A stretch of DNA of 64,000 nucleotides from a virus (Duplodnaviria; Heunggongvirae; Uroviricota; Caudoviricetes), in IMG/VR virus record IMGVR_UViG_3300029862_000001, positions 53,276 through 117,275 of that record. One strand, 5' to 3'. This document shows positions 273 through 45,694 of this stretch, in pieces. The notes under the pieces are model-generated. The model was not told the origin of the DNA and ran no database searches. It saw only the letters and a list, made by a program, of their open reading frames with translations. Every line of letters begins with the position of its first letter. Within the stretch, counting starts at the first letter, position 1. A program made the translations under genes and the position numbers.

Positions 273-319
273 ATAGGCTGGTAGTAAGTGAAATGTTTAA
301 CAATTAAAACATAAACAAC

Positions 320-526
320 ATGAACGTAGACTTTGCGCCTGACTTAGATTTGAGTAAGGAGGTAGAAGGTTTTATTTTTGGGGTGAAAGGAATAGAAGGT
401 AGTGATGGTATAGTATATGCTATTACAGTTGTGATAGGTGTATTTTTTTATGATTGTTATAAGGATAAATGTTTGTTATCGCGTAGTGATAGTTGTATAG
501 AACAGGCTGCCATAGAGGGGGAGTAG
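320..526 (+). CDS. hypothetical protein (68 aa)
   Basis: ATG at 320 immediately downstream of the repeat array; A-rich upstream leader; no recognisable motifs. Confidence 0.3.
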   Translation: MNVDFAPDLDLSKEVEGFIFGVKGIEGSDGIVYAITVVIGVFFYDCYKDKCLLSRSDSCIEQAAIEGE

Positions 527-714
527 GCGGCGCCTTGGGCTAAGGCCTGCGGTTGTAGGTGGAACGTAGGTCGGAGCAGAGCCGGGACAGTTTGTTGTGG
601 AACTAAAAAAAATAAAAAGGAGGAGATAGCGATATGAAAAAAGGCATTTAAGATATTTTCTATTATGTTTGTCATAGAAATAGTGCTGATAGCTATTTTA
701 GATGCTATGGCGTA

Positions 715-841
715 AGTGAGAAAAATTTCTTCATTAATTTTCTTATGCTTTAGACAGAGTGCTCCCGTCTGCGAAGATCGGAGCACTTGCTTTATGGGAT
801 TCATGGTGCGGTAGGTCGGTTCGATTCCGGCGATCTCACAC
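715..841 (+). ncRNA. tRNA-like element (T-arm GGTTCGATTCC plus acceptor-like 3' strand closed by a distal GTGAGA/TCTCAC stem)
   Basis: Canonical T-arm gtcgg-ttcgatt-ccggc at 815-831, then gatctcaca. The 5' partner gtgaga lies at 716-721. A full cloverleaf could not be folded by eye. The 3' ~45 nt are near-identical to the element at 1607-1689. Ends 28 nt before the start codon at 869. Confidence 0.4.
759..786 (+). other. Hairpin with conserved 12-nt loop GTCTGCGAAGAT (7-bp stem gtgctcc/ggagcac)
   Basis: Read directly from sequence. The same loop sequence recurs in the terminator hairpin at 5399-5426 with a different stem. Confidence 0.6.
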
Positions 842-868
842 AACATTAAAAACAAAGGAGGAAAGAAA

Positions 869-1216
869 ATGAAAGATGGTATTACATTACATCCAGAACA
901 CGGATTGAATCCGTCTATAGAAGTCTGCATGATATGTGGCGAAGAGATGGGGATTGCTTTATTAGGGAATAACATCAAGGGGCAGGCGCCGCATCATATA
1001 TGCACGGGAGAGATATGTGACAATTGCAAAAAGATAATAGATGACGGAGGTTGTTTTATTATCGAAGTCGAGGATGGATCAGATCAAAAGAATCCGTATC
1101 GTACAGGGAGATATTGCGCGATAAAGAAAGAGGCAGCAAAGAAAATACTTGGACAGGAACATAGTGTTGTGTACATGGAAAAGTCTGCATACAGTCAAAT
1201 AATACCACAAAAATAA
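869..1216 (+). CDS. hypothetical Cys-rich (CxxC...CxxC) zinc-ribbon protein
   Basis: ATG with strong RBS aaaggaggaaagaaaATG; MICGEE...CDNCKK motifs. Confidence 0.6.
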   Translation: MKDGITLHPEHGLNPSIEVCMICGEEMGIALLGNNIKGQAPHHICTGEICDNCKKIIDDGGCFIIEVEDGSDQKNPYRTGRYCAIKKEAAKKILGQEHSVVYMEKSAYSQIIPQK

Positions 1217-1224
1217 AGAAAGAT

Positions 1225-1548
1225 ATGTTTACAAAAGAAGAGCGATTATTCATTTGGAAAAAGGTATATGAGGAGATCGAAAGGTTAGAGGATGGGGATT
1301 ATATATGCGTCATGTTGAGAAATATAGTATTTAAGTTTTTCAGTACTCCTAAAAAAATAGAATCCATTTATGGGTTATATTTAGATAAACTGGTGAAAAC
1401 ATATTTCCCGGAATTGGAGGAAAAGAAAAGTATGACTACAGAACCAGAAGAAGAATGGAGGATATATGGATGGTTTGGTTGTATTAGTCCAGAAACGAAG
1501 GAGGTGAGGCTAAATATTGTGAAAGATATTATAAAAGAGTTAGAATAG
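1225..1548 (+). CDS. hypothetical protein (107 aa)
   Basis: ATG start; tightly packed after the previous gene. Confidence 0.5.
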   Translation: MFTKEERLFIWKKVYEEIERLEDGDYICVMLRNIVFKFFSTPKKIESIYGLYLDKLVKTYFPELEEKKSMTTEPEEEWRIYGWFGCISPETKEVRLNIVKDIIKELE

Positions 1549-1606
1549 TATTTTTGTTAATCTATTTTATTCATCAAATTAAGTTTTGGGTTTTGGCATG
1601 TCGGTT

Positions 1607-1689
1607 CGTGAGAATAGGCATGTCTATTTCTGTATCATAGAGGGATGGCGAGGCGTGCCGGTCCTGGTTCGATTCCGGGCATCTCACAA
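1607..1689 (+). ncRNA. tRNA-like element, second copy (~82 nt)
   Basis: T-arm cctgg-ttcgatt-ccggg at 1663-1679, then catctcaca; 5' gtgaga at 1608-1613 pairs with tctcac at 1682-1687. The 3' end and downstream leader (atctcacaaacaataaaacaaaagag) are near-identical to the element at 715-841. Precedes the start codon at 1709 by ~20 nt. Confidence 0.4.
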
Positions 1690-1708
1690 ACAATAAAACA
1701 AAAGAGTT

Positions 1709-1942
1709 ATGAGAATATACAAGAATGATATTATAAAGGCGTCAGCGATAAGCACCGGCGATGACAGGGGATTATTACTATGTTCAATAACGGATTCAGG
1801 CTTTACGTCTATAGCTGGTGTAATATCGGCTATTAAAGACAAGTTGCCAGGCAAAGATCATAAGAAGATGATTTTTGAAATACGGAATGATGGAAGAAAC
1901 GAATATGGCAGATATAATAATTGCGGAACAAAAGTATTGTAA
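1709..1942 (+). CDS. hypothetical protein (77 aa)
   Basis: ATG start after the tRNA-like element; no motifs. Confidence 0.4.
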   Translation: MRIYKNDIIKASAISTGDDRGLLLCSITDSGFTSIAGVISAIKDKLPGKDHKKMIFEIRNDGRNEYGRYNNCGTKVL

Positions 1943-1998
1943 TAAAGAGTAGAAAACAATATGTTTATGTAATATTAGTTTTTTCATTTTTATTGAAA

Positions 1999-2028
1999 GG
2001 AGCGCCGGCCTGTGAAGGTATGCGCTCT
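1999..2028. terminator. GC-rich hairpin ggagcgc/gcgctct, T-rich on the + side
   Basis: Stem 1999-2005 / 2022-2028. On + it is followed by tttgtatttatat and could terminate the 1709..1942 gene. On - it lies ~17 nt downstream of the orphan IS right-end copy. Confidence 0.4.
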
Positions 2029-2044
2029 TTGTATTTATATAATG

Positions 2045-2165
2045 CTTGACATACTCCCATCGCTAAAGCAAACGGGATTCTTGGATACAAACGTACGGAA
2101 CCCCCGGTTTTACAATCGTTGGAATCACCCGCACTTTCCAACTCGGAAATGCCCTTCCGAGGTCG
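2045..2165 (-). mobile_element. Orphan IS200/IS605 right-end (omega-RNA scaffold-like) copy with no adjacent tnpB
   Basis: ~120 bp, ~80% identical and co-linear with 63176-63292, which is the 3' end of tnpB plus its right end. Similarity stops at exactly the same point in both copies (cttgacatac...; on the - strand the element ends ...GTATGTCAAG). No surrounding TnpB-like coding sequence. Confidence 0.55.
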
Positions 2166-2252
2166 CAAGACAGGGCAAATATAATGTTTAATTATCATCT
2201 GACACATAAATGGGATCAGTATTACCATTAAATAACATAAAACAATAATAAT

Positions 2253-2507
2253 ATGACAGATAATAACATAGATGTGAATATCGTACCTGTAAAGAATGGT
2301 GCGAAACGTGTTGTGGTATCATATTACCATTATTCACGCAAGGACAAAAATCACATGAGTTCCCAAACGGATTACGTTTGGGAAACAAAGAATGAAGAAA
2401 TGTTTAAATACTTTGAGGCCAGGAGGACAAAAGTATTTTATAGTCAGATTCGTGCCATGTGTAGATTCTATGGCAAGAAAAATGTACGTAAATACAAAAA
2501 GTTATGA
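2253..2507 (+). CDS. hypothetical protein (84 aa)
   Basis: ATG start; basic C-terminus. Confidence 0.45.
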   Translation: MTDNNIDVNIVPVKNGAKRVVVSYYHYSRKDKNHMSSQTDYVWETKNEEMFKYFEARRTKVFYSQIRAMCRFYGKKNVRKYKKL

Positions 2508-3313
2508 TATTAAAAACGACAACCAACGAGTTTTGTTTCATTAACGTAAGTTTCTATGAAACAATAGCAGATCCTCGCTATTTCTTTGAACAAGATTATA
2601 AAGAGATGCCGGAATATGAGGAGGAATTAGATTTTGATTTTGATTCTTATTGCAATAAGTTTATTCCTTTTGTACAGGAATGGGCGAATAAGGTGGGCGA
2701 ACGCCTTTATGAATATGGTGTGAATAACATAAAGGTAATATCGGTCGGACATCCAAAAGATCGCAATTATGGTACTGATTGGATGGATGTAAGGGTAGAG
2801 TTTTGTGATGAATGGAGGCAAAAGATGTTATCTAACATTGGTAAGATTGTTAATGATGATAAATGCAAGAAGTATGCGGAGGCTAATTACCGGTCGGTAT
2901 CAGGATACATCTTTTTAGGACCTGAAGATTTAGAGGAATTTGAAAAGGAAATAATAGAAAGAAAGTCAGATTCGGGATATGATGTAACAATATTGTTAAA
3001 TATGTATCTAACTTTGGCTTTTGTAAAAGAATTTGGATTTAAAGCCGGAGAAGCATGGAGTGAAATAACAGAATATGCTTACGGATGTTTGTCGTATTCT
3101 GATTTTGCAACAACAGAGATGCTTATACCGGAAGGTTCGGAGCATTTATTCAAAGACATTTACACGGCAAAGGCCGACGAATTATATCATCATGTCCTGG
3201 ATAAATTCGGATGGGCGTGGCGTGATCCGAAATATAAGTCAGAAACAGAATTATGCGCGATGCTAAAGTGGGTAAAAGAAAAAGGCTTGACCATTGAAGA
3301 GTTAAGTATTTAA
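2504..3313 (+). CDS. hypothetical protein (269 aa)
   Basis: ATGA overlap with the upstream gene; long ORF with no competing frame. Confidence 0.6.
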   Translation: MILKTTTNEFCFINVSFYETIADPRYFFEQDYKEMPEYEEELDFDFDSYCNKFIPFVQEWANKVGERLYEYGVNNIKVISVGHPKDRNYGTDWMDVRVEFCDEWRQKMLSNIGKIVNDDKCKKYAEANYRSVSGYIFLGPEDLEEFEKEIIERKSDSGYDVTILLNMYLTLAFVKEFGFKAGEAWSEITEYAYGCLSYSDFATTEMLIPEGSEHLFKDIYTAKADELYHHVLDKFGWAWRDPKYKSETELCAMLKWVKEKGLTIEELSI

Positions 3314-3376
3314 TTGTTAAACATAAGGCAGTATTGGTGCGTGAGTATAGGTGCTGCCGTTAAAATATTTTATAAG

Positions 3377-3625
3377 ATGAAAAAAGAAGAGATTCAAACT
3401 ATTTTATACACAATCAAAGAAGGAGACAGTATTAAAATCAAAGTACAAGACAAAAGTGAAGAGATAAGACTGCGGGATCATGTAAGAAGAGTACAGAAAT
3501 ACGGATACAGGTTTTGTTTGTCTCATTTACATGATGGAATTTTCTATCTGGAGAAGTTGAAAGAAGGGGATAAGGATAAATACTATAGAGTAATAAACAG
3601 AGGAAATGAAAAGACCGGAGTATAA
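3377..3625 (+). CDS. hypothetical protein (82 aa)
   Basis: Track start at 3314 is TTG; the first in-frame ATG is 3377 (MKKEEIQ...). Confidence 0.45.
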   Translation: MKKEEIQTILYTIKEGDSIKIKVQDKSEEIRLRDHVRRVQKYGYRFCLSHLHDGIFYLEKLKEGDKDKYYRVINRGNEKTGV

Positions 3626-3899
3626 TAAGCTACGCAAAATGGCTAAGACTACTCCAGGTCTGATAGTGGACGAGGTGCAAAACATGATGCGTGTATCGCT
3701 ATACGATAATGGGGAGCTTAAGAAGGTGGTAGTAGTAATGAAATGCGATTCTTTTTTACAGTCAAAAAGTAACATAGAAAAGATAATGTTATTATCATCT
3801 TCTATAGAAGATAGAAAAAACAAAGAAAAAAATAAAACAAAATCAGAAAATGAACAGAATAACAAAAATAAGAGAAGAAATAGGAGGAAAACAGGTTGA
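3606..3899 (+). CDS. hypothetical protein with highly basic K/R/N-rich C-terminal tail
   Basis: ATG at 3606 overlapping the previous gene; C-terminus KNKEKNKTKSENEQNNKNKRRNRRK. Confidence 0.4.
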   Translation: MKRPEYNKLRKMAKTTPGLIVDEVQNMMRVSLYDNGELKKVVVVMKCDSFLQSKSNIEKIMLLSSSIEDRKNKEKNKTKSENEQNNKNKRRNRRKTG

Positions 3900-4233
3900 T
3901 TTGACCTTTTACGGGCGCTTTTGCAGCCTTATCGAAGGTGATAGGGAGATAATACTAAGGGCAATAAAAAACGGTCGTAAAAAAGGCGTAATCGGGGCCA
4001 TTCAGCCTGGGAGACATGACAGAATTTGGACCACATGGTCTATTGCTTTTAACGATCTGAAGGTAGGGGATACGGTAGAGTTCAGTACATCTGGAAAATA
4101 CAATCCCGGATTTCATGCTACGGAAAAGTATGTAGGGTGTGTAGAATGGATAAAAGGGTCGGAATGTGCGATAAAAACCGGTAAGGGGATAGCAGTAGTA
4201 TTAATTAAACACGTGGAAAGGGTGATAAAATGA
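3850..4233 (+). CDS. hypothetical protein (127 aa)
   Basis: ATG start; overlaps neighbours by a few codons, typical phage packing. Confidence 0.5.
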   Translation: MNRITKIREEIGGKQVDLTFYGRFCSLIEGDREIILRAIKNGRKKGVIGAIQPGRHDRIWTTWSIAFNDLKVGDTVEFSTSGKYNPGFHATEKYVGCVEWIKGSECAIKTGKGIAVVLIKHVERVIK

Positions 4234-4514
4234 TGGATTTAAGAATGTTTATAGACCTATTTCAGGAGATTGAGGTAGAGAACTTGTTTAAGGCGTTAGA
4301 TTTATGTATGGAATATGTAAGATTAGATTTACATGTGTTTAATGTAGGAGCTCATGTAACGTGTTCATACAGCAATGATCTTGAATCTCTTTCACAGGCA
4401 GAAGGTTGTAATGTGAATATGATAATAGAGGTACCCTACTTATTCGAAGCATTCATGGAATATGCTTCACCGGAAATGAAGTTGTATTATGAAAAACTAA
4501 CAGAGATAGTATAA
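4230..4514 (+). CDS. hypothetical protein (94 aa)
   Basis: ATGA stop-start overlap. Confidence 0.5.
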   Translation: MMDLRMFIDLFQEIEVENLFKALDLCMEYVRLDLHVFNVGAHVTCSYSNDLESLSQAEGCNVNMIIEVPYLFEAFMEYASPEMKLYYEKLTEIV

Positions 4515-4515
4515 T

Positions 4516-4989
4516 ATGAAAGAAGAAGTAGAACGGATAAAGAAGTTGGTAGGCATAGATCATAACAGATGGGAGCAACCTTGTGCATGTGATAAATGCA
4601 AGAACATGTGTAAGGTTCCTTGTATTGGTACGCCAAAAAACATAGAGGCTATCATAGATGCCGGATACGCTGACAGGTTAAAAGAAACAATGTGGATGGT
4701 AGGGTATCTTGCAGTGAAAGAAAAACCAATAGCGATGATCCAGCCAACAGAGAAAGACGGGTGGTGCGCATTCCGCCAGCCAGACGGTCTCTGCGAGCTG
4801 CATGACCGTGGACTAAAGCCGACTGAAGGAGTTCTGGCTTCTTGTAAGGTGGTTGAAGAAGACAATGTCCCAACATATGAAACGTCTGTACTTAGAGCAG
4901 TAGCTCATGAGTGGGTTAAGGTGGAGAACTTTGGAAATGTAATGAAGGTCGTTTTTAAATTTTTGCATGAAAATGAACGTAGAAAATAA
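4516..4989 (+). CDS. hypothetical Cys-rich protein (CACDKCKNMCKVPC)
   Basis: ATG start 2 nt after the previous stop. Confidence 0.55.
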   Translation: MKEEVERIKKLVGIDHNRWEQPCACDKCKNMCKVPCIGTPKNIEAIIDAGYADRLKETMWMVGYLAVKEKPIAMIQPTEKDGWCAFRQPDGLCELHDRGLKPTEGVLASCKVVEEDNVPTYETSVLRAVAHEWVKVENFGNVMKVVFKFLHENERRK

Positions 4990-5377
4990 ATTAGATAAAG
5001 TGGTTAATATCCTAAAAGAAAAAGGATTTGTAGTATATAGAAAGGGCGGGAAGGAGCCAGGTGTGTTTTACGCTAAAGAAGGTGACAGCCGGATAGGATT
5101 CGTTTATCCCAACAACGGATATATATACGACAGGATAAAGATGTGGTCTTTTTCAAGGGTATATAAACCACATAAGAAAACCGGGTCTTCGTGCTTAATG
5201 TGTGTCAGCGACGAATTTACTATAGAGAATGCGATTAAGAACATAGAGGATAGACTGTGGGTAAATTACATAAAAGACGGTAACAGAAAACGACCAGAAG
5301 AATATAAAAATATAAGAGAATTTGTTGGTAGCTTCACTAAATTCTACAACTCTGTAGAATTAGTTGAGGTTAAGTAG
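4967..5377 (+). CDS. hypothetical protein (136 aa)
   Basis: ATG start overlapping the previous gene's end. Confidence 0.5.
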   Translation: MKMNVENKLDKVVNILKEKGFVVYRKGGKEPGVFYAKEGDSRIGFVYPNNGYIYDRIKMWSFSRVYKPHKKTGSSCLMCVSDEFTIENAIKNIEDRLWVNYIKDGNRKRPEEYKNIREFVGSFTKFYNSVELVEVK

Positions 5378-5398
5378 TTTTCCATGTAAGTTAGTTAC

Positions 5399-5432
5399 CG
5401 GCACTGGTCTGCGAAGATAGGTGCCGTTTTTT
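5399..5432 (+). terminator. Rho-independent terminator (stem cggcac/gtgccg, loop GGTCTGCGAAGAT, then TTTTTT)
   Basis: 7-8 bp GC stem followed by a T6 run, directly after the stop at 5377. The loop is identical to the hairpin at 759-786. Confidence 0.65.
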
Positions 5433-5452
5433 ATTCAAGAAAGGAGGACAAA

Positions 5453-5705
5453 GATGGAGAAAAGAGACAAGAAGATGCCTTACGAGGTAGTCATACAGGA
5501 AAGAAAAAGAGTGGATTTGTACGGTAACGTAGTGTATTATATCCATTGGTTTGATAAATATGGGGACAATATCACAAACGAATGGAAATTCTGGAGCAAG
5601 GGTCCGAAAAAGAAATACGATAGAGTTAATCGTTATCTAACGGATAGTTGGTTGAAGGAATACTGTGGGAATAACAATTTAAAGATAAGGAGAATAAAAG
5701 AATGA
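5453..5705 (+). CDS. hypothetical protein (84 aa)
   Basis: Track start at 5421 is GTG inside the terminator hairpin; ATG at 5453 has RBS aaggagg 7 nt upstream. Confidence 0.5.
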
Positions 5706-5815
5706 AAAATATAAAAGTAGATAAAGTGATATTATATTACATGGATCGGGTAGACCCTGACGGGAACTTATACCGGTTCTATGTGTATAAAGGAATGGCA
5801 TCTGAAATAGAATAA
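5702..5815 (+). CDS. small hypothetical protein (37 aa)
   Basis: ATGA overlap with the previous gene and RBS taaggag; below the ORF-track size cut-off. Confidence 0.3.
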   Translation: MKNIKVDKVILYYMDRVDPDGNLYRFYVYKGMASEIE

Positions 5816-5963
5816 TTTTGCACGGAAGAGGCAGGTAATATGACCATACCAATCGGAGAAGGAGAGTATGTCGAGATCGTACTTGACAACGGAGAGAAAC
5901 AATAGAACATATATCAGAATCGGTTATTAAAAAAATATATAGATGACCAAAAGAGGCATTGAT

Positions 5964-5990
5964 CCCCTGCTTAAAAGCAGGGGCTTTGCT
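5964..5990 (+). terminator. Perfect 8-bp hairpin cccctgct-taaa-agcagggg followed by cttTgct
   Basis: Seen in sequence, in a ~390-bp stretch of low coding density (5816-6098). Confidence 0.35.
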
Positions 5991-6098
5991 AAAGATCGTA
6001 AAGTGCGAAGAACCCAGGTTCAGGGGAGACGCGGCCTGTTCTGCGTGGCGTAAGGCTACAGTAGATGAAATTATTGAACATTTTAAAAACAGATAATT

Positions 6099-6512
6099 AT
6101 GGGATATATATGTACAAGATGTGGTGGAACAAATGTTGCCTGTGAAGCCATAGTAAATCCGAATACCGGAAAAATAATAGATTATTTTGATGGATCTTTC
6201 GCGCATGCTATTTGCTCGGATTGTGAAAACGAGGTAATAATATCCAACATTGAAGAAGTCAAACATGAAATTGATTTAAGATTTCATGAATTTGTAGAAA
6301 GAACAGGGAAGGAGCCTGAATACGTAGAATGTCAGATTGTGTGGAAAGAGACAGGAGACGATAAAAGAACGACAATCAAACTATCGCTGAGTATCAACGA
6401 TGATGATAATGATGATGTTTTTTATTATTGTAATGGAATAGAATCGTTTAAGCAACTTGCTGAATACGGGATGGTAAAATTTATCGTAACAGGTTGTTGG
6501 AATTTCTTTTAA
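6099..6512 (+). CDS. hypothetical zinc-ribbon protein (CxxC...CxxC)
   Basis: ATG start; CTRCGG...CSDCEN motifs. Confidence 0.55.
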   Translation: MGYICTRCGGTNVACEAIVNPNTGKIIDYFDGSFAHAICSDCENEVIISNIEEVKHEIDLRFHEFVERTGKEPEYVECQIVWKETGDDKRTTIKLSLSINDDDNDDVFYYCNGIESFKQLAEYGMVKFIVTGCWNFF

Positions 6513-6549
6513 GAAACATATGTAGTTATCATTTTTAATAACATATCTT

Positions 6550-6876
6550 ATGAAAACACAAGAAGAATATGCCCATGAAATTGACGAAATCGTTCGCCGG
6601 GATGTAGAGAGCTGCCAGAGTGACTGGTTTATAATCGACAAGGAGATATTTATGCAGCCAGAGAATAAGAACAAGGCATTTATTTTGGGAACAAGAAAGA
6701 CCGGGTGCGATATGATCGTACTTGGAGGTACTAATTGCAGTGGATCCAATATAGATCGGCTTTTCGGTTGCCTTGGCAATGAAAATTTCTATGTATGTCA
6801 GCCGTTATCTTTCTATAAATCACAACAAGAAATCCAGAAAGTAAATCCGCTTTATGCTTTCCCCGTTAATCAATGA
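6550..6876 (+). CDS. hypothetical protein (108 aa)
   Basis: ATG start. Confidence 0.5.
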   Translation: MKTQEEYAHEIDEIVRRDVESCQSDWFIIDKEIFMQPENKNKAFILGTRKTGCDMIVLGGTNCSGSNIDRLFGCLGNENFYVCQPLSFYKSQQEIQKVNPLYAFPVNQ

Positions 6877-7051
6877 TGATTACACTGGATTAACGGATGA
6901 AGAATGTGAGGAAATCCAACGCTTCTTGGAAGCAGCAGAAGGTTATCCGGTAGATGTAGATTTGGAAACACAAGGGTTTTACCGTTGTAATGACGCAGGA
7001 ACACTTCCCGGAGAGTGTGCAGATTTTATTTTTCATAAGTGTAATGATTAA
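6854..7051 (+). CDS. hypothetical acidic protein (65 aa)
   Basis: ATG start overlapping the previous gene by 23 nt. Confidence 0.35.
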   Translation: MLSPLINDDYTGLTDEECEEIQRFLEAAEGYPVDVDLETQGFYRCNDAGTLPGECADFIFHKCND

Positions 7052-7071
7052 CTTAAATAAAATACAAGATA

Positions 7072-7388
7072 TGGAAAAAGATTATTATTCTGCTACTACG
7101 AGCAAACATCAATGCTATGTTCGTAATGCGATACCAACTTGGGCAATGGTTTTCAGTGTAGGGGATAATATATCGGATACTGGTAATATGAGGTTTGTTG
7201 CCAGCAAACTGTGGCGGGCTGTGTCGGCAATGCACCGGGGCGCCGAGTTTCGGCACGGTCTGGTGGAGGACATCACCGGTCACCAGTGGAGTCTAAATCG
7301 GTACGAAAACGATTTGCTAACCGCTGGATGTCATAGGATAGCATATAACGAAATGGAGAGAATAGCAAAACAACTGGGATGGGTTTAA
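7072..7388 (+). CDS. hypothetical protein (105 aa)
   Basis: Internal ATG chosen; the track start at 6990 overlaps the previous gene. Contains a GC-rich codon-anomalous segment at 7190-7300. Confidence 0.45.
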
Positions 7389-7434
7389 GTAACCCATCTT
7401 GTTTTATTGATTACATAATTAAAAATAAAAAGAT

Positions 7435-8178
7435 ATGGAAAATCCAATTATTGTTCCGTTTGATTTAAATACGGCGAGAAAAATTAAAAGCGGAGAAATA
7501 GAAGGTTCAGTATTAATTGGTAATATTAAAATAGAATTTGTATATGAGTCAAAAGACTGGGCAGATCGTTATAATTTACTTTTTGTAAAAAAAAATGAAT
7601 CTAGGATAAGTGCTATATATGCCGATACAGAAGGTCGTACTTTTTTCAACAACGTTCTGGAATTGGAAGTAGAGGCTGGAGCGTATTTTAAGAAAGGAGA
7701 TGTATTAATAAGCACGCTTGGGAACCCATTTATATATAATGGTATTATTAATAGAGAAGGAGATATGGGATGCATATATGGTATATCGGCATATGGCGAG
7801 ATTACATCTGAAGAAGTTCCAATATGGACAAGTGTGTGTGGTGAGGATAAATCCAAGTATGTTAGATTAGCCACAGAGGAAGAGAAAAAATCTTTTGCTG
7901 AAAGAATTGCTAATACAGAAAACCTTAAAAAAGCAGGAATAATAAAACAATATCTAAGTGAGTACGAATACTTGCTGACTAAAGAAAAGAAATGCGATTT
8001 TAAGCCATTCGATCAAGTCTTGGTGAGAGCAAGCAATTTGGGAAATTGGAATCTACACTTATTTGCCAGAGTAAGAGAAGAAGAATATAAATATGAATGC
8101 TTGGGAGGTTTGAGATACAAAGAGTGTATCCCATACCAAGGAAATGAGCATCTTTTAGGAACTAATAAAAATGGATAA
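7435..8178 (+). CDS. hypothetical protein (247 aa)
   Basis: ATG start; long uninterrupted ORF. Confidence 0.6.
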   Translation: MENPIIVPFDLNTARKIKSGEIEGSVLIGNIKIEFVYESKDWADRYNLLFVKKNESRISAIYADTEGRTFFNNVLELEVEAGAYFKKGDVLISTLGNPFIYNGIINREGDMGCIYGISAYGEITSEEVPIWTSVCGEDKSKYVRLATEEEKKSFAERIANTENLKKAGIIKQYLSEYEYLLTKEKKCDFKPFDQVLVRASNLGNWNLHLFARVREEEYKYECLGGLRYKECIPYQGNEHLLGTNKNG

Positions 8179-32232: not shown

Positions 32233-32266
32233 ACCGGTTCTCTATCATCTCTGACTGAGAACCGGT
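32233..32266. terminator. 10-bp hairpin accggttctc / gagaaccggt between the convergent + and - gene blocks
   Basis: Stem 32233-32242 / 32257-32266 with a 14-nt loop; T7 run at 32212-32218; lies in the 212-bp gap between the last + gene and the first - gene. Confidence 0.45.
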
Positions 32267-32403: not shown

Positions 32404-35400
32404 CTACTTGTAGCTAACATCATCGTCCCCTTCCGAATCAGGAGTAGCGCCGATGAAGAACATCATTGACTTGTTGTTCGTCTGCTGCCACCAATTATAG
32501 GCGCGCGCTACGTTTTCCGGCGTCTTGATATTATACCATTGTTTGATAAACGTCTGTTTGGCGAGTTGCCTAAATAACTTAGACTCTCCCTTGTATGTAC
32601 CGGATGTTACTTTATCAAGTGAATAATTCCTAAGATCGGTAAGATCCTTCAGTTTTCGCCCCATAACAAACGGATCGTTAATGATATCTACCACGTTAAG
32701 CTCCATAATAAACGGCATCTGTGAAGCTATTTCGTTTATGGTTCTGAATCCGACATAGGATCCAAATTGAGTAAGCCAACTTTCCTCGTTTTCATCATCA
32801 TCACGCCACCCGGCAAGAAGCATAGATACGGCTTGCATAATAAGGAACGTGCCGGCATAGACACTGAGGCGTTTGAGATTAGTTTTCTCTACCTCATTCA
32901 TATTGTCTTTATTTTCGTTCCAGGCATCTATGATGTTTTTCATACCAGACTCGGAAGCCAGGCTAAATGTTTTGACTATCATATTCTTTAACGTAATTGA
33001 CAACCCTTCCTCTTCTTGCATTGTCTGGAAATTGAAGCCACGTCTTTTCCACAGACGTTGAGCCGCCAGCACCAACCATCCTCGGTGGGCGGTCATGAAC
33101 CTGGCTATCCAGTTGCGCGATGCGGCAGTTCGGTTTTCTTCATTCAAAGATCCGTTACATATCTGCGACAAGCTACGGACTTGATTCCTGGTTATAGCCA
33201 TCTGGGTTTCAACTTCCTCAACAGTAACACCCGATCCCGGCTTTACAACCACCTTTCCATCCACGACGTCTACCATACTCCATAAAGTACGATCTTTTAA
33301 TGCGTTCCATTCTCTTTTTATGGTACTCTGTTCTTTATTGCGTTCTTTTTCCATCTTGAAATCTTGGAACGTGTAGAACCGGCCTTTGTAATAACGAACA
33401 TTGTCCATAGTAGCAATCATAACCTGCGGATCAAGAGGGTAGTTCAGGATTTCCATAAAAGCATACATAGGTGAACGCATTAAGGTCCTGGCCACTCTAT
33501 TATATCCGGCACCATACATACGATTTCGGATATTGAATATCCCCATTCTCTCACCTATGACATATAATTTGCTTTTCCTATCTATGTCTCCGGTTTCTGC
33601 TATACAAGATGGAGCAAGGCGTGAAAATTCAGCCGATGCGTATTTAAGGGAATCTTTACTTATATACTGTCCTACGGCAGATTCCATGATGAGGTTGATA
33701 TGACCTGTTAAGGCGCCGGTAGCTGCCACAAACGGGGACAGTGCCAAGTTCATGACCGACATAAATCTTTCAACAGCTATCATAATTCTTGTAAGGTCTA
33801 CCGTATATCCTCCGATGTTCACCGTAAGTTTTTTGGTGTTCATCCTAATGCCATAATAATGATCGTTGAAGAAGTCCCTGAACATCTGATATGCTTGGGT
33901 TGCTTCAGCCTTTTTACCGCCTTCAAATTGTTTGTTCAGCAACATCTGCTCCAGTCCTTGAGCGAGCTCTATAGACTTCTGCTTTTCGTTGTATAACGAT
34001 GACTGCATCATAAGCATCGAATAAGAGTAGCCAAAATCGTGAGATACATCATCTTGGTTCTCCAATTCATATATGTAGTATTTAGGTATAGACCTAAGTC
34101 TGTCTTCCGGATCATATACTTCCCCTTGTCTGGTTTTACCGTATAAAGAATCGTCTACTCTGTCCAGGCACAGATCTGATACAAAATTACGAACCGTATT
34201 TTTGAAGTTAATACCCAATCCTTCTATACGTTCTATATCTTGTTTTGATATCTGTGGAATAGCATATAGATTCGGGCTCTGCTCTTTGTATAGATCAAGT
34301 GATTGTCTTTTTATTTCCTTGAGTTTTTGAATCATATTCCACTGCTCTACGTTTTTAGTAGCGACCTCATTACCATCAGCATCATACTTAATGCCGAAGT
34401 CGTTGAAATACGATTCATCACGATACAGGCTCTTCTTGGGCATACGATGACCATACCCATGATCTTTTACATAATCAGGGTTACGACCGCTATTTTCGGC
34501 CTCAGATTCAGCCACCCACGCTCTTGCAGGGTCGAAAGACAGGTATGATATGTCCATACCATAATCTTGTGTGGAAGTCCCATTCTGTACGTCCTTAACC
34601 ATCTGCGCCACATCTATCTCACCTCGACCTATTTTGTCGATCATAGCCGCATATCCGGTAGGCGCCATGCGTTTATAGTACGAAAAGACTTGGCTCCTGG
34701 CAAATTCATTAACGATATCGTTCACTTCAGCTACTCCGTTATCGTGTCCAAATATGTCAGACATCTTAGCTCTAACCGCATTCCTAAAATCTCTACGATC
34801 TAGCTTTTTATCTATTCCCAATTTTTCTGACAAGTAGTTGGTTTCAGAGACGGTAAACATATACCTGTTATCTTGAGCCATGAATAACTTATCTCTAAGA
34901 GCCTGAATCTTTTTGGCTTTTTTGGCAGTAGTATGACGCTGTGCAAACTGCCATTCAATTTCCTTAGAGTCAGCAAGAGCATTTAAATAAGACTGATTGA
35001 CTTCGTTTTCAGCTTTACTGCTTTTAGTAAGGTACTTATCAATATCTTCAAGACCCACCATCTTAGCATAATCTATTAAGATAGCGTAATCGACTTCAAT
35101 AGCTTCAGATGCAGCCCTAAAAGCATCTCTTTCAGATGAGGTAAATGTCGCTTCGTTAATCTCTCCGATATCAGCCACATCTCGGTTGTTTCCGATTATT
35201 TCCTTGATAATGGCCTTATTTTTTTCTATATCTTTTACAATAGAATCCACGTCAGTCTCATATCTATCACTTGTCGTAGAACTAATGATATCATGCGCCA
35301 TTTTGATATACGAAGCCTTGTTATTTGATTCGGTACGCGCCGACTGTTCCGATTCTACGTCATTCCAAAACCGATCATTAAATGACAGGTGACCTCCCAA

Positions 35401-38400
35401 CATAAGTGTCTTCAACGCAGCTTCTCCTCCTGACTCGTTCTGAATCGTTCTTAATTTTTGCAAAAACGATTCTGATACGGCATTAGTGGCATTATTTGAT
35501 TCTTTTCTCCAAACTTCATTTATGGCTTGTATTTCTTTGGCCATCTTAAGTTGGTCGCCAGTTTTTTCCACTCTCCTGGTTCCTACATATATGTATTCTG
35601 AAGCTGCTTCCTTACGTTGTTTACGAAGCAGTCCTTCTTCTTCGTAATTGCTGCTTTTAAAATAGGCAACCTCATCAAAATTACCACCGCTATCAATAAA
35701 AGGCTGCCTCAATATCCGTTTTTGCCTGGATAGGGCATTAAGGTATTCTTTGGTTGTTTGAGAAACCGGATGCCCTAATTCTTCTTCAGCCTTTTTGTAT
35801 ATGGATTCCATTCTTGTGGCATAACTTTCGCTAAATTCCAGTTCCGAATTTTCAGCATCCCACTTTTCCATCTGCTCTGTATAGATCTTTTCCTGTTCGA
35901 TGGTAAAAATATCGGTATTAACTCTATCAGACGATGGTTTGAATTTAGCGTTTTCAGTAACCGTATTTCCATCCTTGTCAACTACTTCTCTTTTAAATAC
36001 GTAATTACGGTTATTGTCAACCACATCACCAATTTCTTCTTCTGATATCTCTATGTTCATGGCAGTCGCAAACGCTCGCATCTGTGCCAGCTTCTTATTA
36101 CGATCGTATTTAGCCATATCAAGAGCACTGCGAAGGTAATTAGAAGTTTTGCCATCTACTTTCTGAAGCAGTTTTTCAAATTCAGATTTGTTAAAACCAT
36201 GCTTTTTAGCATATGCCAGGAAGTCGGATATGGCGGGCTGGGCATTCACCATCGCATTGTAATTGTCTTTTGCAATCATAGCTCCAAGAGCGTTATTGAA
36301 CGGACTGGAAGAATGCTCTAATATACCGAACCACCTACTTATCCAAGAAACATCGTGTTGAACCTTGTCAAAAAATTCTTTTACTCCCTTTACCTTATCT
36401 GCCGGCACATGAAGTTCGTTCATTAACTTATCAAGCAACGTACTTTCATCAAGGTCTTGTACTGATTTAATATCAGACTGAATACCATTGATGTCGGCGA
36501 TGACGGTATTGATCCTATTTGTATAATCCTGCTTTTCACGTTCATCAAATTCGGTACTTCTGTTACGGATATATCCTCGAAGATCGTTCATGATCGGAAG
36601 AATCTGATTGTTGATAATATCTACGTTCTTTCGATCATTGGTATTGAAGTGAAGCTTACCGCCTTTGGTATCACCATGAAGGATGGTGTTTACCACATTA
36701 CTTAAGTATCTGACCTGAGCTTCGGCTGTGGAGATCATGCTGTTCATGGCAGCCGCCATCTCATTCTTGTCTATTTTGGTCTCTACCTTATTTATCTTAT
36801 CTTCTATGGTCTTAAGCTGAGCAAGGGTCATAGACGTAGTTACAGCCCTATCAGAACTTATCTGACGTAAGTCTCTTAATGTTTTTCTTAGCGATCTGAT
36901 CTTAGACTCAAGAAACTTGTTCTTGTTCATAGAAGAAAGGGAGTATAATGTAAAGTCATTATCCTTTAACAGAGAAGTGTCAAATCCTTTATCTATGTCA
37001 GTAATGGCAAGATCACGAATGTTTTTAATAACGTTATTCAAATCTTGTCTTTGGGTTGATAAAGCTGATTTAAGCCAGCTTACTATTCCAGAGAAAAGCC
37101 GCCGGACGCGCCCCAGGAAGGAGGTGGGCTCTACCGGAGCCTGTGCTGTGCCGGTCTGCATCTCCCTGGCGAGGATCTTTCCAAGAATTTCTCTCCTAAC
37201 AGCATTATCAAGCTCAGCTCCTTCATATACCTTACCGTATGTATTATAATACTGACCTGCATACTGGTTCCACTCTTCCGTACCTTCCACATCTTGCAGA
37301 ACAGCCTCAACAGCATTCTGATCTCTGTATGCCTCTACAAGGAAGTGGGCTGTTTCTTCTACTAAATCAGATAAAGTAGCATCTTCACCAACTGCTATTA
37401 CGTTATTAGCAATATCCGCCAATGCCTTAGCAGAAGGTTCGTGCCCGTATTTGGTTTGGTACTTCTCTATATAGTCGGTCATACCTATGACACTAACGCC
37501 AAGCGTTTTCAGTATCTCGACAATAGAATTTCGTTGGTCACGTTCCTGCCTGCTATAATCTGATACGATCTTAGCTTTAGTATCAGCATAAAGATCGTTA
37601 TCTTCTAATATGAATGAAACTACAAGCGCATCAAAATGATCGTACTTGGCGTCCAATTCATTGTATCTTCCTGACTTAAGATCGTTCTTTATCTGTTCCC
37701 TACTAACCCTTTCCGTTCCTCCGGTGGCGAGTCTCATAGTTACCTTACTGTTATCCAACGAGCTTATGGTTATCATACCCTGGTCGTTCATGGAAACATC
37801 GGAACCAAAATGATTACGGAGCTCGGTGTATGATAAGGCTGAATTGAAAAGTCTAATTTGTCCTGTATGACCTTCTCCTGTAAGATAATAGCTTCTTGTT
37901 TCAGGATCGAATATCTTAGATCCTGACAAAAGACCTTTCTTTATAAGGTAGTTAATTATCCCGCCTTTTGTTGATAAAGAAGTAGAAGCAGAAGCGGTCA
38001 TGACCGGTATAAAAGACTTGGGATTATTAAGAACATACTTTCCAGCTTTGTAAGTAATGTCTGCCACGCCATCCACGGTAGATTCTTGAACGGTTCCTGA
38101 TAAGAATCCTATTCTAATATCATTCCCGCCAGAGCGAAGAGCTTCTCCGTAATCTTCAAATAATTGACTACGATCGTTCATGAAAAACAAACGAGGCTCT
38201 CCAGTCTGATACGTTACACCCACAGGATTAGAATCTGTTTCTGGTAGCTCTTCTGGGCTAAATATCTTAAGACCGTCTTTTATAACCATATAATTAACAC
38301 CCTTATCCTGTACCACAGATACGGGAGTGAAGTCCGAAGATATAGCATCTTGTAAATACTGCCCGGCGTCTATTCCTGGTTCTTCCGGTACGGAAATACT

Positions 38401-38817
38401 TGATGGGATCATAGCATCCACCAACATAATATTATCACCCAGATCTTGGCTATAGAATCCGAAGCCTGATTCTTGAATCCCATAAGTTGCATCTGATTTT
38501 GATACAAGAACAGGATTACTCATCTTAGAAGCCTTATCCAGTACCCTTTCTCTATAAGCTTCCGGAATAAGATCGATGTTGGATTTTACCTTATTATAAG
38601 CCGGTTTGTTGATAGGCACTCTCTTTCTCCAGTCGCCAAAAGCCTTTAAGAACTTATTGGAAAATACGGTTTTAAAAACAGTAGTAGCCCGTTCCCTGTT
38701 CTCCATAAGAGGAATAGATGCTATCTTATCAAACAACATAGACCTGTCCCCTGATCTGGTAGAGACAGAAACAACTTTCTTTTTATTATCTCTTTTAATA
38801 ATACACGTTGATGCCAT
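32404..38817 (-). CDS. giant virion-associated protein (2137 aa), function unknown
   Basis: 6.4-kb uninterrupted ORF on - with ATG start; no catalytic motifs recognised by eye; sits within the block of large structural genes. Confidence 0.8.
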   Translation of the reverse strand: MASTCIIKRDNKKKVVSVSTRSGDRSMLFDKIASIPLMENRERATTVFKTVFSNKFLKAFGDWRKRVPINKPAYNKVKSNIDLIPEAYRERVLDKASKMSNPVLVSKSDATYGIQESGFGFYSQDLGDNIMLVDAMIPSSISVPEEPGIDAGQYLQDAISSDFTPVSVVQDKGVNYMVIKDGLKIFSPEELPETDSNPVGVTYQTGEPRLFFMNDRSQLFEDYGEALRSGGNDIRIGFLSGTVQESTVDGVADITYKAGKYVLNNPKSFIPVMTASASTSLSTKGGIINYLIKKGLLSGSKIFDPETRSYYLTGEGHTGQIRLFNSALSYTELRNHFGSDVSMNDQGMITISSLDNSKVTMRLATGGTERVSREQIKNDLKSGRYNELDAKYDHFDALVVSFILEDNDLYADTKAKIVSDYSRQERDQRNSIVEILKTLGVSVIGMTDYIEKYQTKYGHEPSAKALADIANNVIAVGEDATLSDLVEETAHFLVEAYRDQNAVEAVLQDVEGTEEWNQYAGQYYNTYGKVYEGAELDNAVRREILGKILAREMQTGTAQAPVEPTSFLGRVRRLFSGIVSWLKSALSTQRQDLNNVIKNIRDLAITDIDKGFDTSLLKDNDFTLYSLSSMNKNKFLESKIRSLRKTLRDLRQISSDRAVTTSMTLAQLKTIEDKINKVETKIDKNEMAAAMNSMISTAEAQVRYLSNVVNTILHGDTKGGKLHFNTNDRKNVDIINNQILPIMNDLRGYIRNRSTEFDEREKQDYTNRINTVIADINGIQSDIKSVQDLDESTLLDKLMNELHVPADKVKGVKEFFDKVQHDVSWISRWFGILEHSSSPFNNALGAMIAKDNYNAMVNAQPAISDFLAYAKKHGFNKSEFEKLLQKVDGKTSNYLRSALDMAKYDRNKKLAQMRAFATAMNIEISEEEIGDVVDNNRNYVFKREVVDKDGNTVTENAKFKPSSDRVNTDIFTIEQEKIYTEQMEKWDAENSELEFSESYATRMESIYKKAEEELGHPVSQTTKEYLNALSRQKRILRQPFIDSGGNFDEVAYFKSSNYEEEGLLRKQRKEAASEYIYVGTRRVEKTGDQLKMAKEIQAINEVWRKESNNATNAVSESFLQKLRTIQNESGGEAALKTLMLGGHLSFNDRFWNDVESEQSARTESNNKASYIKMAHDIISSTTSDRYETDVDSIVKDIEKNKAIIKEIIGNNRDVADIGEINEATFTSSERDAFRAASEAIEVDYAILIDYAKMVGLEDIDKYLTKSSKAENEVNQSYLNALADSKEIEWQFAQRHTTAKKAKKIQALRDKLFMAQDNRYMFTVSETNYLSEKLGIDKKLDRRDFRNAVRAKMSDIFGHDNGVAEVNDIVNEFARSQVFSYYKRMAPTGYAAMIDKIGRGEIDVAQMVKDVQNGTSTQDYGMDISYLSFDPARAWVAESEAENSGRNPDYVKDHGYGHRMPKKSLYRDESYFNDFGIKYDADGNEVATKNVEQWNMIQKLKEIKRQSLDLYKEQSPNLYAIPQISKQDIERIEGLGINFKNTVRNFVSDLCLDRVDDSLYGKTRQGEVYDPEDRLRSIPKYYIYELENQDDVSHDFGYSYSMLMMQSSLYNEKQKSIELAQGLEQMLLNKQFEGGKKAEATQAYQMFRDFFNDHYYGIRMNTKKLTVNIGGYTVDLTRIMIAVERFMSVMNLALSPFVAATGALTGHINLIMESAVGQYISKDSLKYASAEFSRLAPSCIAETGDIDRKSKLYVIGERMGIFNIRNRMYGAGYNRVARTLMRSPMYAFMEILNYPLDPQVMIATMDNVRYYKGRFYTFQDFKMEKERNKEQSTIKREWNALKDRTLWSMVDVVDGKVVVKPGSGVTVEEVETQMAITRNQVRSLSQICNGSLNEENRTAASRNWIARFMTAHRGWLVLAAQRLWKRRGFNFQTMQEEEGLSITLKNMIVKTFSLASESGMKNIIDAWNENKDNMNEVEKTNLKRLSVYAGTFLIMQAVSMLLAGWRDDDENEESWLTQFGSYVGFRTINEIASQMPFIMELNVVDIINDPFVMGRKLKDLTDLRNYSLDKVTSGTYKGESKLFRQLAKQTFIKQWYNIKTPENVARAYNWWQQTNNKSMMFFIGATPDSEGDDDVSYK

Positions 38818-38868: not shown

Positions 38869-38907
38869 TAAAAAATAAAGCCACCTAACTTCTCAGTCTG
38901 ATGGCTT
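38869..38907 (-). terminator. Rho-independent terminator (stem aagcca/tggctt plus TTATTTTTT on -)
   Basis: Hairpin 38878-38907 preceded on + by A-run 38869-38877, immediately downstream of the - gene ending at 38959. Confidence 0.5.
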
Positions 38908-38958: not shown

Positions 38959-39282
38959 TTATATGTAATGCATGTACCCATCTCGGTGTATAAACCTTCC
39001 CGATTCAAAGCGCTCAATATCTTCAGGGCAAATAGGGCCCGAATCCTCTCTCCTGGCTTCAAACCAAAGCCCCGGCTTACGAAGTCGGCAAGTTATGATA
39101 TAGTTGAAGCAATTGTGCGTAAAATGGAAAACAGATCCTACAGGGAAATACCTATCAGCTTGAAATACGATTCTTTTTCGTTTAGTATCAAACGTGATAT
39201 CCCCTACTATCTTAGCCACGTAATAGCTTCTGCCATTTAACGTTTCATCTGTCTGCGGTATCCAATAATAACCTCTTGCCAT
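38959..39282 (-). CDS. hypothetical protein (107 aa)
   Basis: ATG at 39282 (MARGYYW...) just after the terminator hairpin at 39293-39326; the track start at 39351 would overlap that hairpin. Confidence 0.45.
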   Translation of the reverse strand: MARGYYWIPQTDETLNGRSYYVAKIVGDITFDTKRKRIVFQADRYFPVGSVFHFTHNCFNYIITCRLRKPGLWFEARREDSGPICPEDIERFESGRFIHRDGYMHYI

Positions 39283-39292
39283 GCCACAAATA

Positions 39293-39326
39293 TATAAAAA
39301 AAGTCGGACAAGACACATGCCCGACT
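39293..39326 (-). terminator. Rho-independent terminator (agtcgg/ccgact hairpin plus T-run on -)
   Basis: + strand tataaaaaaagtcggacaagacacatgcccgact. Confidence 0.45.
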
Positions 39327-45653: not shown

Positions 45654-45694
45654 AGTGATAAATATTTTAGACAAAGATACTGTAAAAATAGAAA

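Follow-up and report, generated by a model that had tools for sequence, protein, structure and literature searches.

Hairpins with a conserved GNGA tip downstream of genes and upstream of tRNA and tRNA-like elements in an epsilon crAss-like phage and other gut phages

Two hairpins and the family to which they belong

We analyzed a 64,000-nucleotide (nt) stretch of viral DNA (positions 53,276 to 117,275 of the IMG/VR record IMGVR_UViG_3300029862_000001), referred to here as the window, and a family of hairpins with a shared tip that occurs in it. Judged by its sequence, the window is from an epsilon crAss-like phage; positions 292-7715 were 91.9% identical to crAssE-Sib (OR575929.1), a 151-kb epsilon crAss-like genome from the human gut. 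The coding strand was the plus strand up to about 32 kb and the minus strand beyond. In the plus-strand part lies a row of small open reading frames (ORFs) that matched only PHROGs of unknown function, and within this row the 12-mer GTCTGCGAAGAT was found exactly twice on the plus strand, at positions 767-778 (site 1) and 5407-5418 (site 2). As originally predicted, the window held these two copies; it held no other, even when one mismatch was allowed. Both sites were located downstream of a co-oriented gene, 21-43 nt past its stop codon.

The original prediction had placed the 12-mer in the two sites as an identical 12-nt loop on stems that covaried. Our folding results indicated a different architecture. 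Specifically, GTCTGCGAAGAT folded as a 4-base-pair (bp) GUCU/AGAU helix (pairs G·U, U-A, C-G, and U-A) that was closed by a GCGA tetraloop of the GNRA type, and a 1x1 mismatch parted this inner helix from the outer stem. The hairpin at site 1 (H1; 757-788, plus strand) consisted of a 9-bp outer stem (757-765/780-788), a C766.C779 mismatch, the inner helix (767-770/775-778), and the GCGA loop (771-774), and had a folding energy of -19.0 kcal/mol (z score, -4.0). It was followed by a weakly U-rich tail, UUGCUUUAU, and, 6 nt further, by a tRNA-like element. The hairpin at site 2 (H5; 5399-5432, plus strand) had a 7-bp outer stem (5399-5405/5420-5426), a G5406.A5419 mismatch, the inner helix (5407-5410/5415-5418), and the GCGA loop (5411-5414), with a folding energy of -16.4 kcal/mol (z score, -3.5). 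H5 began 21 nt past the stop codon of ORF 4967-5377 and ended in a U-tract encoded by T6 (5427-5432). In the nearest GenBank relative, the inner helix at site 1 was AUCU/AGAU; this change of the wobble pair to an A-U pair confirmed that the inner-helix bases are paired. The outer stems of the two sites were simply unrelated to each other, and covariation was found only within each site across relatives.

To describe the family in the window, we used an exact descriptor, which required a GNRA loop on a 4-bp inner helix and a 1x1 mismatch between this helix and an outer stem of 6 bp or more, and a looser descriptor (any tetraloop and an inner helix of 3-6 bp). The exact descriptor matched 6 copies, compared to 0.165 copies in shuffled sequences (maximum, 2), and in all 6 copies the inner helix started with G and ended with U and the loop was GNGA. 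The looser descriptor was not enriched in the window (27 versus 21.7 matches), which indicated that only the specific form with a GNGA loop, a 4-bp helix, and a mismatch was meaningful. A covariance model trained on nine hairpin copies yielded nine hits in the window at E values of 0.002 or less, with H5 at the top (34.6 bits) and H1 at 31.6 bits, and 13 hits in crAssE-Sib. Cellulophaga phage phi4:1, the closest cultured relative by terminase large subunit (TerL; 33% identity), gave no hits in the 100 kb that were scanned, nor did the Bacteroides thetaiotaomicron plasmid p5482, and 98 kb of DNA from bacterial metagenome-assembled genomes (MAGs) gave a single weak hit. Of the 21 GNGA-capped hairpins with at least 10 pairs that were collected from the window and crAssE-Sib, 14 had their single mismatch at position 5, counted from the loop; hairpins with a GNAA cap had no comparable mismatch position. 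In the consensus, a free outer stem of 6-11 bp was topped by a 1x1 mismatch, in most cases G.A or A.A, and then by a G.U pair, three Watson-Crick pairs, and a GNGA loop; the commonest orders of the Watson-Crick pairs were U-A, C-G, U-A and U-A, U-A, C-G.

The other seven hairpins in the window carried inner pairs unlike those of sites 1 and 2. Three were in the plus-strand region. H2 (1595-1624) had an 8-bp outer stem, a G1603.A1616 mismatch, a GUUC/GAAU inner helix, and a GUGA loop (1608-1611), forming the tip GGTTCGTGAGAATAG. H3 (1997-2030), a variant kept in 88 relatives, had a 2x2 internal loop (CG/AU), a GCCU/AGGU inner helix, a GUGA loop (2012-2015), and a U-rich tail. H4 (3327-3358) had a 9-bp outer stem, a G3336.A3349 mismatch, a GUGC/GUAU inner helix, and a GUGA loop (3341-3344); it had no U-tract, and the next ATG was about 20 nt downstream. 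On the minus strand, H6 (32233-32266) was located downstream of a 2137-amino-acid ORF (32404-38817, minus strand), where the coding strand switches, and consisted of a 10-bp outer stem, an A.A mismatch, a GUCA/UGAU inner helix, a GAGA loop, and a U-rich tail. H7 (38878-38907, minus strand), between ORF 38959-39351 (minus strand) and the 2137-amino-acid ORF, had an 8-bp outer stem, an A.A mismatch, a GACU/AGUU inner helix, a GAGA loop, and the tail UAUUUUUUAU.

Two looser members completed the set. H8 (43325-43352, minus strand; 21.9 bits) had a GUGA loop, a G.U pair at position 4, no mismatch, and a U-rich tail, and began 42 nt past the stop codon of ORF 43395-45674 (minus strand). H9 (59803-59841, plus strand; 22.3 bits) had a G.A mismatch, a GUUU/AAAU inner helix, a GAGA(G) loop, and a T7 tail. 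Eight of the nine hairpins were 14-137 nt past a co-oriented stop codon. The exception was H9, which was opposite in strand to the flanking long ORFs, in the gap between two minus-strand genes, and which may mark the end of a small antisense or divergent transcript.

Conservation of the design and spread of the tip

Close relatives of the window lineage were gathered by a pattern scan (119 loci), and conservation was counted in 436 related sequences over five hairpin sites. The mismatch was never converted to a pair, the inner-helix G.U pair was kept (or was A-U at site 1), and the loop was GNGA with the exception of one ACGA variant at site 1; only the N position varied. At site 2, the G.A mismatch was invariant and a run of T6 to T10 was present in all relatives. 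Thus, the loop was conserved as a GNGA pattern but not as a fixed sequence, since the contigs with GCGA and with GUGA at site 2 were about equal in number (27 and 26, respectively), and the exact GTCTGCGAAGAT identity of the two sites held in only about half of the relatives. Site 1 was represented by 17 distinct variants, in which 97.3% of the cells for its thirteen pairs were paired, and three outer-stem pairs had changed on both sides (G-C/A-U, U-A/C-G, and C-G/A-U). The hairpin that follows the gene for the 2137-amino-acid protein gave a wider view. In a relative with 66% protein identity (locus L206), the syntenic hairpin kept every feature of the design and had an unrelated stem; at 53% protein identity or less, in distant epsilon-type phages, it was degraded or variant. 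Because the mismatch costs energy, the tip is not needed for stability.

Next, we considered how far the tip extends beyond this lineage. The motif survey covered viral contigs, metagenome contigs, named phages, p5482, and the 98 kb of MAG DNA. With GGTCTGNGAAGATAGH, 82 of the 122 matches listed for viral contigs had at least 7 consecutive flanking pairs, and the stems were unrelated. With GGTCTGTGAAGATAG, 82 of 125 matches in metagenome contigs were in hairpins, which had 53 distinct 5' arms, and with the H2 tip, GGTTCGTGAGAATAG, 93 of 113 matches were in hairpins, which had 50 distinct 5' arms. A reversed 15-mer that could still form the mini-helix served as the control; it had 44 matches in the whole viral collection, and only 1 of the 44 had at least 6 flanking pairs. 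The two widespread tips were G-GUCU-GNGA-AGAU-A and G-GUUC-GUGA-GAAU-A, together on well over 100 unrelated stems. A dispersed repeat of the repetitive extragenic palindromic (REP) type or the miniature inverted-repeat transposable element (MITE) type was rejected, because the outer stems were unrelated, with 53 distinct 5' arms for one tip and 50 for the other.

One carrier was a cultivable phage. Bacteroides phage DAC17 (Steigviridae), whose TerL was 24% identical to that of the window lineage, had the hairpin AGCUAUAUU-G-GUCU-GUGA-AGAU-A-GAUAUAGCU with an identical GGUCUGUGAAGAUAG tip. This hairpin (2722-2750) ended at 2749-2750, about 7 nt before a tRNA-Glu gene (start, 2757), and a second family member was located after gene 120, near 95,095 on the minus strand. 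The three metagenome matches on contigs of more than 290 kb had SSB, RecT/exonuclease, and helicase genes as neighbors and are therefore in prophages. A related tip was also found in a chromosomal small RNA (sRNA) of B. thetaiotaomicron (NC_004663.1, about 2088358-2088563, minus strand), whose terminator has the tip C-UCU-GUGA-AGA-A on a GGACCGCAC stem (PMC7366714, supplement). This tip was close to the phage tip but lacked the G.U pair and the separate mismatch. The supplement of a second B. thetaiotaomicron transcriptome paper contained no related terminator, and a search for GH5 homologues aimed at Bacteroides chromosomes returned phage variants only. In Rfam, the whole window had no hit at gathering thresholds; a permissive search gave sub-threshold hits only, of which the most relevant were the terminators of the Bacteroides sRNAs BTnc231 and BTnc049 (a weak likeness). 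A search of the literature for the motif strings found no relevant occurrence and no description of these hairpins.

These results bear on the exact identity of sites 1 and 2, which the original prediction had treated as the signal. Estimated from the position frequencies of the family, the probability of at least one pair with identical tips among nine members was about 0.6, and the second loop base was free; therefore, the identity of the two tips was a within-family coincidence. It is a different matter to regard the whole finding as pure coincidence or a recent local duplication. The plus strand of the window did contain 743 identical 12-mer pairs, and the flanks of the two copies were unrelated; a shared 12-mer is thus not significant by itself. 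However, both copies were tips of an enriched family, and the same tip was present on more than 100 unrelated stems, so coincidence accounts only for the free positions and is hardly credible for the rest.

The original prediction had named a phage antitermination factor as one example of what might bind the element. In a proposal of the lambda N/boxB type, such a factor would bind the tip, load onto RNA polymerase, and enable read-through of downstream terminators. A short GNRA-type hairpin with adjacent irregularities does resemble the targets of arginine-rich motifs, and several copies were in an early-gene region of many small ORFs. On the other hand, the tip was a tetraloop on a 4-bp helix inside a 12-15-bp stem rather than a 5-bp, pentaloop boxB, no shared linear element resembling boxA flanked the copies, and most copies themselves preceded U-tracts or tRNAs. 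Moreover, copies were found in late and structural regions and in very different phages, prophages included, which argued against a lineage-specific N-like protein. We consider antitermination quite improbable. The broader idea of a recognition element was reasonable in a modified form. There was no 12-nt loop and the identity of the copies was meaningless, but the tip was constrained on free stems, more than 100 of them unrelated.

U-tracts, tRNAs, and tRNA-like elements downstream of the hairpins

Contexts were counted for a dereplicated set of 191 hairpins from the viral and metagenome loci that had been retrieved. A T-tract followed 91 of the 191, an ARAGORN tRNA was located 0-20 nt downstream of 33, and an uncalled element consisting of a T arm plus an acceptor stem was within 25 nt of 23; these loci were chosen by the motif itself, so the percentages are descriptive and are not unbiased frequencies. 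In the viral-contig loci that were scored, the spacing between hairpin and tRNA was 2-10 nt. Given 146 tRNAs in 1.1 Mb, fewer than 0.1 hairpin-tRNA juxtapositions were expected by chance. The window lineage itself provided an example, a Met-Gln-Arg-Cys array in which a hairpin was 5-6 nt before tRNA-Met and another was 4 nt before tRNA-Arg. The placement of site 1 before a tRNA-like element, and of other members before genuine tRNAs, was more informative than any other context and had been overlooked in the original prediction.

Site 2 represents the U-tract context. All of the sequence features of an intrinsic terminator were present there, including the T6 run (T7 to T10 in relatives), and the original prediction of a terminator at the second copy was well founded; site 2 very probably terminates transcription. 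This raised the question of whether all of the hairpins are ordinary intrinsic terminators, in which the GNGA tip is a fast-folding unit favored by the host RNA polymerase, no factor is involved, and the tRNA-proximal copies are terminators or attenuators that lie before tRNAs by chance. Site 2 is a textbook terminator, U-tracts followed about half of the copies, bacterial terminators often have GNRA tetraloops, and the terminators of the B. thetaiotaomicron sRNA and the two Rfam Bacteroides sRNAs have similar GUGA or GCGA tips. Neither stability nor folding speed, however, would lead one to expect a fixed, destabilizing purine.A mismatch that was left unrepaired in 436 sequences, a fixed G.U pair, and a loop that was GNGA and never GNAA. 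In addition, about 30% of the copies were 2-20 nt before the 5' ends of tRNAs or tRNA-like elements without a U-tract, other terminators in the window lacked the tip module, and p5482 had none. On balance, an explanation by ordinary terminators seemed unlikely.

The contexts also helped to separate RNA-level from DNA-level functions. A hairpin in single-stranded DNA could be an N4-like promoter, a site at which tRNA or gene cassettes recombine, or a priming signal, and it was observed that breaks in gene content between relatives adjoined the site 1 unit and that hairpins flanked small cassettes and tRNAs. Yet the G.U (G.T) pairs and purine.A mismatches were strand-specific and always on the coding strand, and the complement would have C.A mismatches; the association with U-tracts and the fixed 2-10-nt spacing to tRNA 5' ends are RNA-level features; and it was the tip that was conserved and not the base, unlike in attC sites or IS200/IS605 ends. 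We excluded an N4-like hairpin promoter and an attC-like site by the strand asymmetry and the conservation of the tip instead of the base, and any DNA-level function is very improbable. In light of the strand-specific G.U pairs, the co-orientation with genes, and the U-tracts, we are highly confident that the family is real and acts at the level of RNA.

Another RNA-level possibility was that the tip is an endoribonuclease site that separates cistrons or releases tRNAs and small RNAs, like the RNase III sites of the T7 early region. The location of copies between co-directional early genes and within tRNA arrays is in keeping with this, and a conserved irregular hairpin is reminiscent of processing signals. 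At 12-15 bp, though, the helices were rather short as RNase III substrates (the hairpins had 11-15 pairs in total, compared to the roughly 20 bp or more of near-continuous double-stranded RNA that the enzyme prefers), no nuclease was implicated, and cleavage alone would leave the U-tracts at half of the copies unexplained. We therefore regard this possibility as improbable.

Further arrangements of hairpins and tRNA genes were noted in other phage contigs. A 41-kb viral contig (L257, 9480-10920, minus strand) had seven family hairpins in 1.3 kb, one of them 3 nt before a tRNA gene that was apparently split by an insertion of about 100 nt, as well as repeated GGACGAAAGUCC mini-hairpins. Uncalled tRNA-like genes were located directly after family hairpins in loci L225, L226, L282, and L329 (e.g., L226, 4475-4600), and some of them seemed to lack a D arm (31-nt linker). 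In L404 (8009-8090), a 41-nt minihelix with a perfect 7-bp stem and a 10-nt linker began one base after a family hairpin. Loci L289 and L231 had big tRNA arrays (26 tRNAs in 14.6 kb), including tRNAs with a CUA anticodon that ARAGORN called tRNA-Pyl; these are likely to be amber suppressors, a hint of stop-codon recoding in these phages.

The tRNA-like elements of the window lineage resembled the top half of a tRNA. In each of them, a canonical GGUUCGAUUCC T arm led directly into a 7-nt strand, whose pairing partner was a 7-mer 13-32 nt upstream, and the element was followed by a C, an A-rich leader, and a start codon. Compensatory or wobble changes were observed among relatives in both helices. 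Mimic 1 (795-839, plus strand) is the element that follows H1. Its acceptor-like strands, UGGGAUU (795-801) and GAUCUCA (832-838), enclosed a 13-nt linker (802-814) and the T arm GUCGG-UUCGAUU-CCGGC (815-831), and the discriminator-like C839 and the A-rich leader preceded an ATG at 869. Thus, a T arm with a 5-bp stem and a loop of the UUCGAUU type was stacked directly on a 7-bp acceptor stem. The T-stem variants GUCGG and GCUGG both paired. Mimic 2 (1641-1687, plus strand), which was 16 nt downstream of H2, consisted of AGGGAUG/CAUCUCA, a 15-nt linker, the T arm CCUGG-UUCGAUU-CCGGG, and C1687, followed by an A-rich leader and an ATG at 1709; here, GGGGATG/CATCTCA covaried with GGAGATG/CATTTCA. 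A third, paralogous element with a 32-nt linker was located outside the window (L002, 7819-7886; minus strand of the crAssE-Sib record at about 569).

The linkers of these elements were variable. In mimic 1, positions 810-814 were hypervariable (GGTAG, AGCAA, AGCAG, AACAG, AATAG, AGTAG, and ATCAA) with invariant flanks in otherwise near-identical relatives. In mimic 2, most relatives (e.g., L002 from 10450 onward) had a 29-nt linker, compared to 15 nt in the window (1648-1662); the two lengths differed by a single copy of a direct repeat, which ends in GTGCCGGT. A 220-nt region without an ORF between H3 and the next gene (2031-2252) contained a GGGATTC box that resembled the acceptor strand of mimic 1 and folded no better than shuffled sequences (z score, -0.5).

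Two other identities were considered for mimic 1. A full tRNA was rejected; there were no D or anticodon arms, and only 13 nt separated the acceptor 5' strand from the T stem. A bacterial Y RNA (YrlA), an idea that arose from the presence of Ro60/Rsr in crAssE-Sib, was rejected as well, based on the lack of an Rfam hit and on the wrong topology. The element order at site 1 was hairpin, acceptor 5' strand, T arm, and acceptor 3' strand with open ends, whereas YrlA has a closed acceptor-like hairpin, and the rsr gene was about 70 kb away in crAssE-Sib. Regions of crAssE-Sib at 72.7-74.8 kb (L122), 137.1 kb (L123), and 3.5-4.4 kb (L121) encoded RNA-end enzymes. Ro60/Rsr was beside tRNA-Tyr and tRNA-Lys, and a family hairpin formed the rsr terminator; an enzyme of the CCA-adding/poly(A) polymerase type and a polynucleotide kinase/phosphatase were also present. 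This RNA-end toolkit could be related to the hairpins and the tRNA-like elements.

A proposed role in marking RNA 3' ends

Taken as a whole, we favor the reading that these are hairpins that mark RNA 3' ends and have a selected tip, to which we assign a probability of about 0.55. In this proposal, the hairpin would mark and protect RNA 3' ends that arise in two ways. In the U-tract context, as at site 2, it would serve the upstream gene as the hairpin of an intrinsic terminator. At copies with a tRNA or tRNA-like element within 2-20 nt, such as site 1, RNase P would cut at the 5' end of the element; the upstream RNA would then end in the hairpin and a short tail, like a terminated RNA, and the downstream mRNA, released by the same cut, would begin with a short A-rich leader. 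Site 1 probably works jointly with its tRNA-like element, although we hold this with less assurance than termination at site 2. Finally, since the tip was constant on hundreds of free stems and stability offered no explanation, the simplest explanation would be a surface that a host or phage factor reads in trans. We put the odds of such a specific factor at slightly less than even. A more elaborate version, in which the tip (R.A mismatch, G.U pair, three pairs, and GNGA) is the operator of a Bacteroidales or phage RNA-binding factor that marks 3' ends and, together with top halves cut by RNase P, forms a tRNA-punctuation system for polycistronic early transcripts and tRNA arrays, is doubtful. 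If it were true, it would be a tRNA-punctuation mode of expression that has not been described for bacteriophages.

Several observations weigh against the proposal of 3'-end marking. The family, its design, its conservation, its strand specificity, and its two contexts were seen directly; termination, RNase P cleavage, 3'-end protection, and the factor were all deduced from sequence. Site 1 and H4 had no good U-tracts, so the term terminator does not fit all copies; 44 of the 191 hairpins had neither a U-tract nor a tRNA or tRNA-like element downstream; and the sampling of loci by the motif, as noted above, limits what the context counts can carry. The ordinary terminators in the window lacked the module, so termination in this host does not depend on it. 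Given the related terminator of the chromosomal B. thetaiotaomicron sRNA, the tip could be a host-wide terminator preference and not a phage-specific signal. For the tRNA-proximal copies, a hairpin 2-10 nt upstream of a tRNA could hinder RNase P. With regard to the tRNA-like elements, ARAGORN found no tRNA in the window and left the mimics uncalled, Rfam gave no tRNA hit for mimic 1 at E values of 10 or less, and minimum-free-energy folding of the elements was no better than that of shuffled sequences; the tRNA-like assignment is suggested by the T-loop consensus, the zero-spacing geometry, and limited covariation.

The proposed function can be compared to several known systems. Intrinsic terminators with GNRA tetraloops likewise have a stable hairpin after a co-oriented stop codon, a tetraloop, and a U-tract, as do site 2 and about half of the family. 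In contrast to them, the family keeps a destabilizing mismatch, a G.U pair, a loop that is GNGA only, and a near-identical tip on stems that have nothing in common, and many copies directly adjoin the 5' end of a tRNA and lack a U-tract. The iron-responsive element and its regulatory protein (IRE/IRP), the MS2 and PP7 coat protein operators, and lambda boxB/N have a constrained loop, a spacer helix of 4-5 bp, an unpaired or mismatched purine, and a free lower stem. The family shares this design logic but has no sequence similarity to these elements and no known partner protein, and its context is RNA 3' ends and pre-tRNA leaders rather than translational operators or nut sites.

Phage T7 has RNase III sites and 3'-terminal stabilizer hairpins between the co-directional genes of its early region. 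The hairpins described here are likewise irregular and would leave upstream mRNAs with a protective hairpin end, but their helices are too short for RNase III, and the end is proposed to arise via termination or RNase P. Punctuation by tRNAs and processing of tRNA-like structures are known from mitochondrial transcripts, MALAT1/mascRNA, and minihelix substrates of RNase P. Here too, an acceptor stem plus T arm is located between an upstream RNA and a message, and the upstream structure would cap the 3' end; however, the elements described here are top halves of 41-66 nt with linkers of 10-32 nt, and their cleavage is putative. Our literature searches found no description of tRNA punctuation in phages of Bacteroidales. 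Lastly, REP sequences and bacterial interspersed mosaic elements (BIMEs) are, like the family, numerous imperfect intergenic hairpins on the transcribed strand that are able to stabilize upstream mRNA, but REP copies share their whole sequence and the family shares the tip only.

The widespread hairpin family in gut phages, with which miniature tRNA-like elements are associated, is apparently undescribed. The genome description of crAssE-Sib does not mention hairpins, terminators, or promoters (PMC11054128). Among the viruses of the human gut, crAss-like and other Bacteroidales phages rank first in abundance, and the control of their transcripts has hardly been described. The tip is short and easily recognized, recurs on hundreds of unrelated hairpins, and is kept against its own thermodynamic interest, both at terminators and directly before tRNA and tRNA-like genes. 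This suggests a common step in which RNA 3' ends are formed, processed, or stabilized. Testing is practical, as phage DAC17 carries the exact motif and is cultivable on B. thetaiotaomicron. The hairpins may also be useful as annotation marks for transcript boundaries and uncalled tRNA-like RNAs in gut phage genomes and, possibly, as a part for Bacteroides synthetic biology.

Some additional observations were made on the phage and its host. Shine-Dalgarno cores were not enriched upstream of ORFs (13 of 70 versus 12 of 70 in a control window), which fits a Bacteroidota-type host. A promoter scan of the window gave fewer matches than expected from shuffled sequences. A ThyA search for the host matched only Clostridia MAGs at 38% identity and was uninformative, and a TerL search for distant relatives found only relatives that were 92-99% identical.

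The 2137-amino-acid ORF that is flanked by H6 and H7 was 97% identical to metagenomic proteins and only about 24% identical to proteins that are similar in size to the crAssE-Sib counterpart. A DFDxD motif was looked for in this ORF and was absent. Distant homologues of the protein carried extra LPD23 or methyltransferase domains. In some relatives (TerL loci L173-L188 and others), the match to the terminase large subunit spanned 3.95 kb, compared to 2.8 kb elsewhere, and the insertion of about 1.1 kb is possibly an intron or intein.

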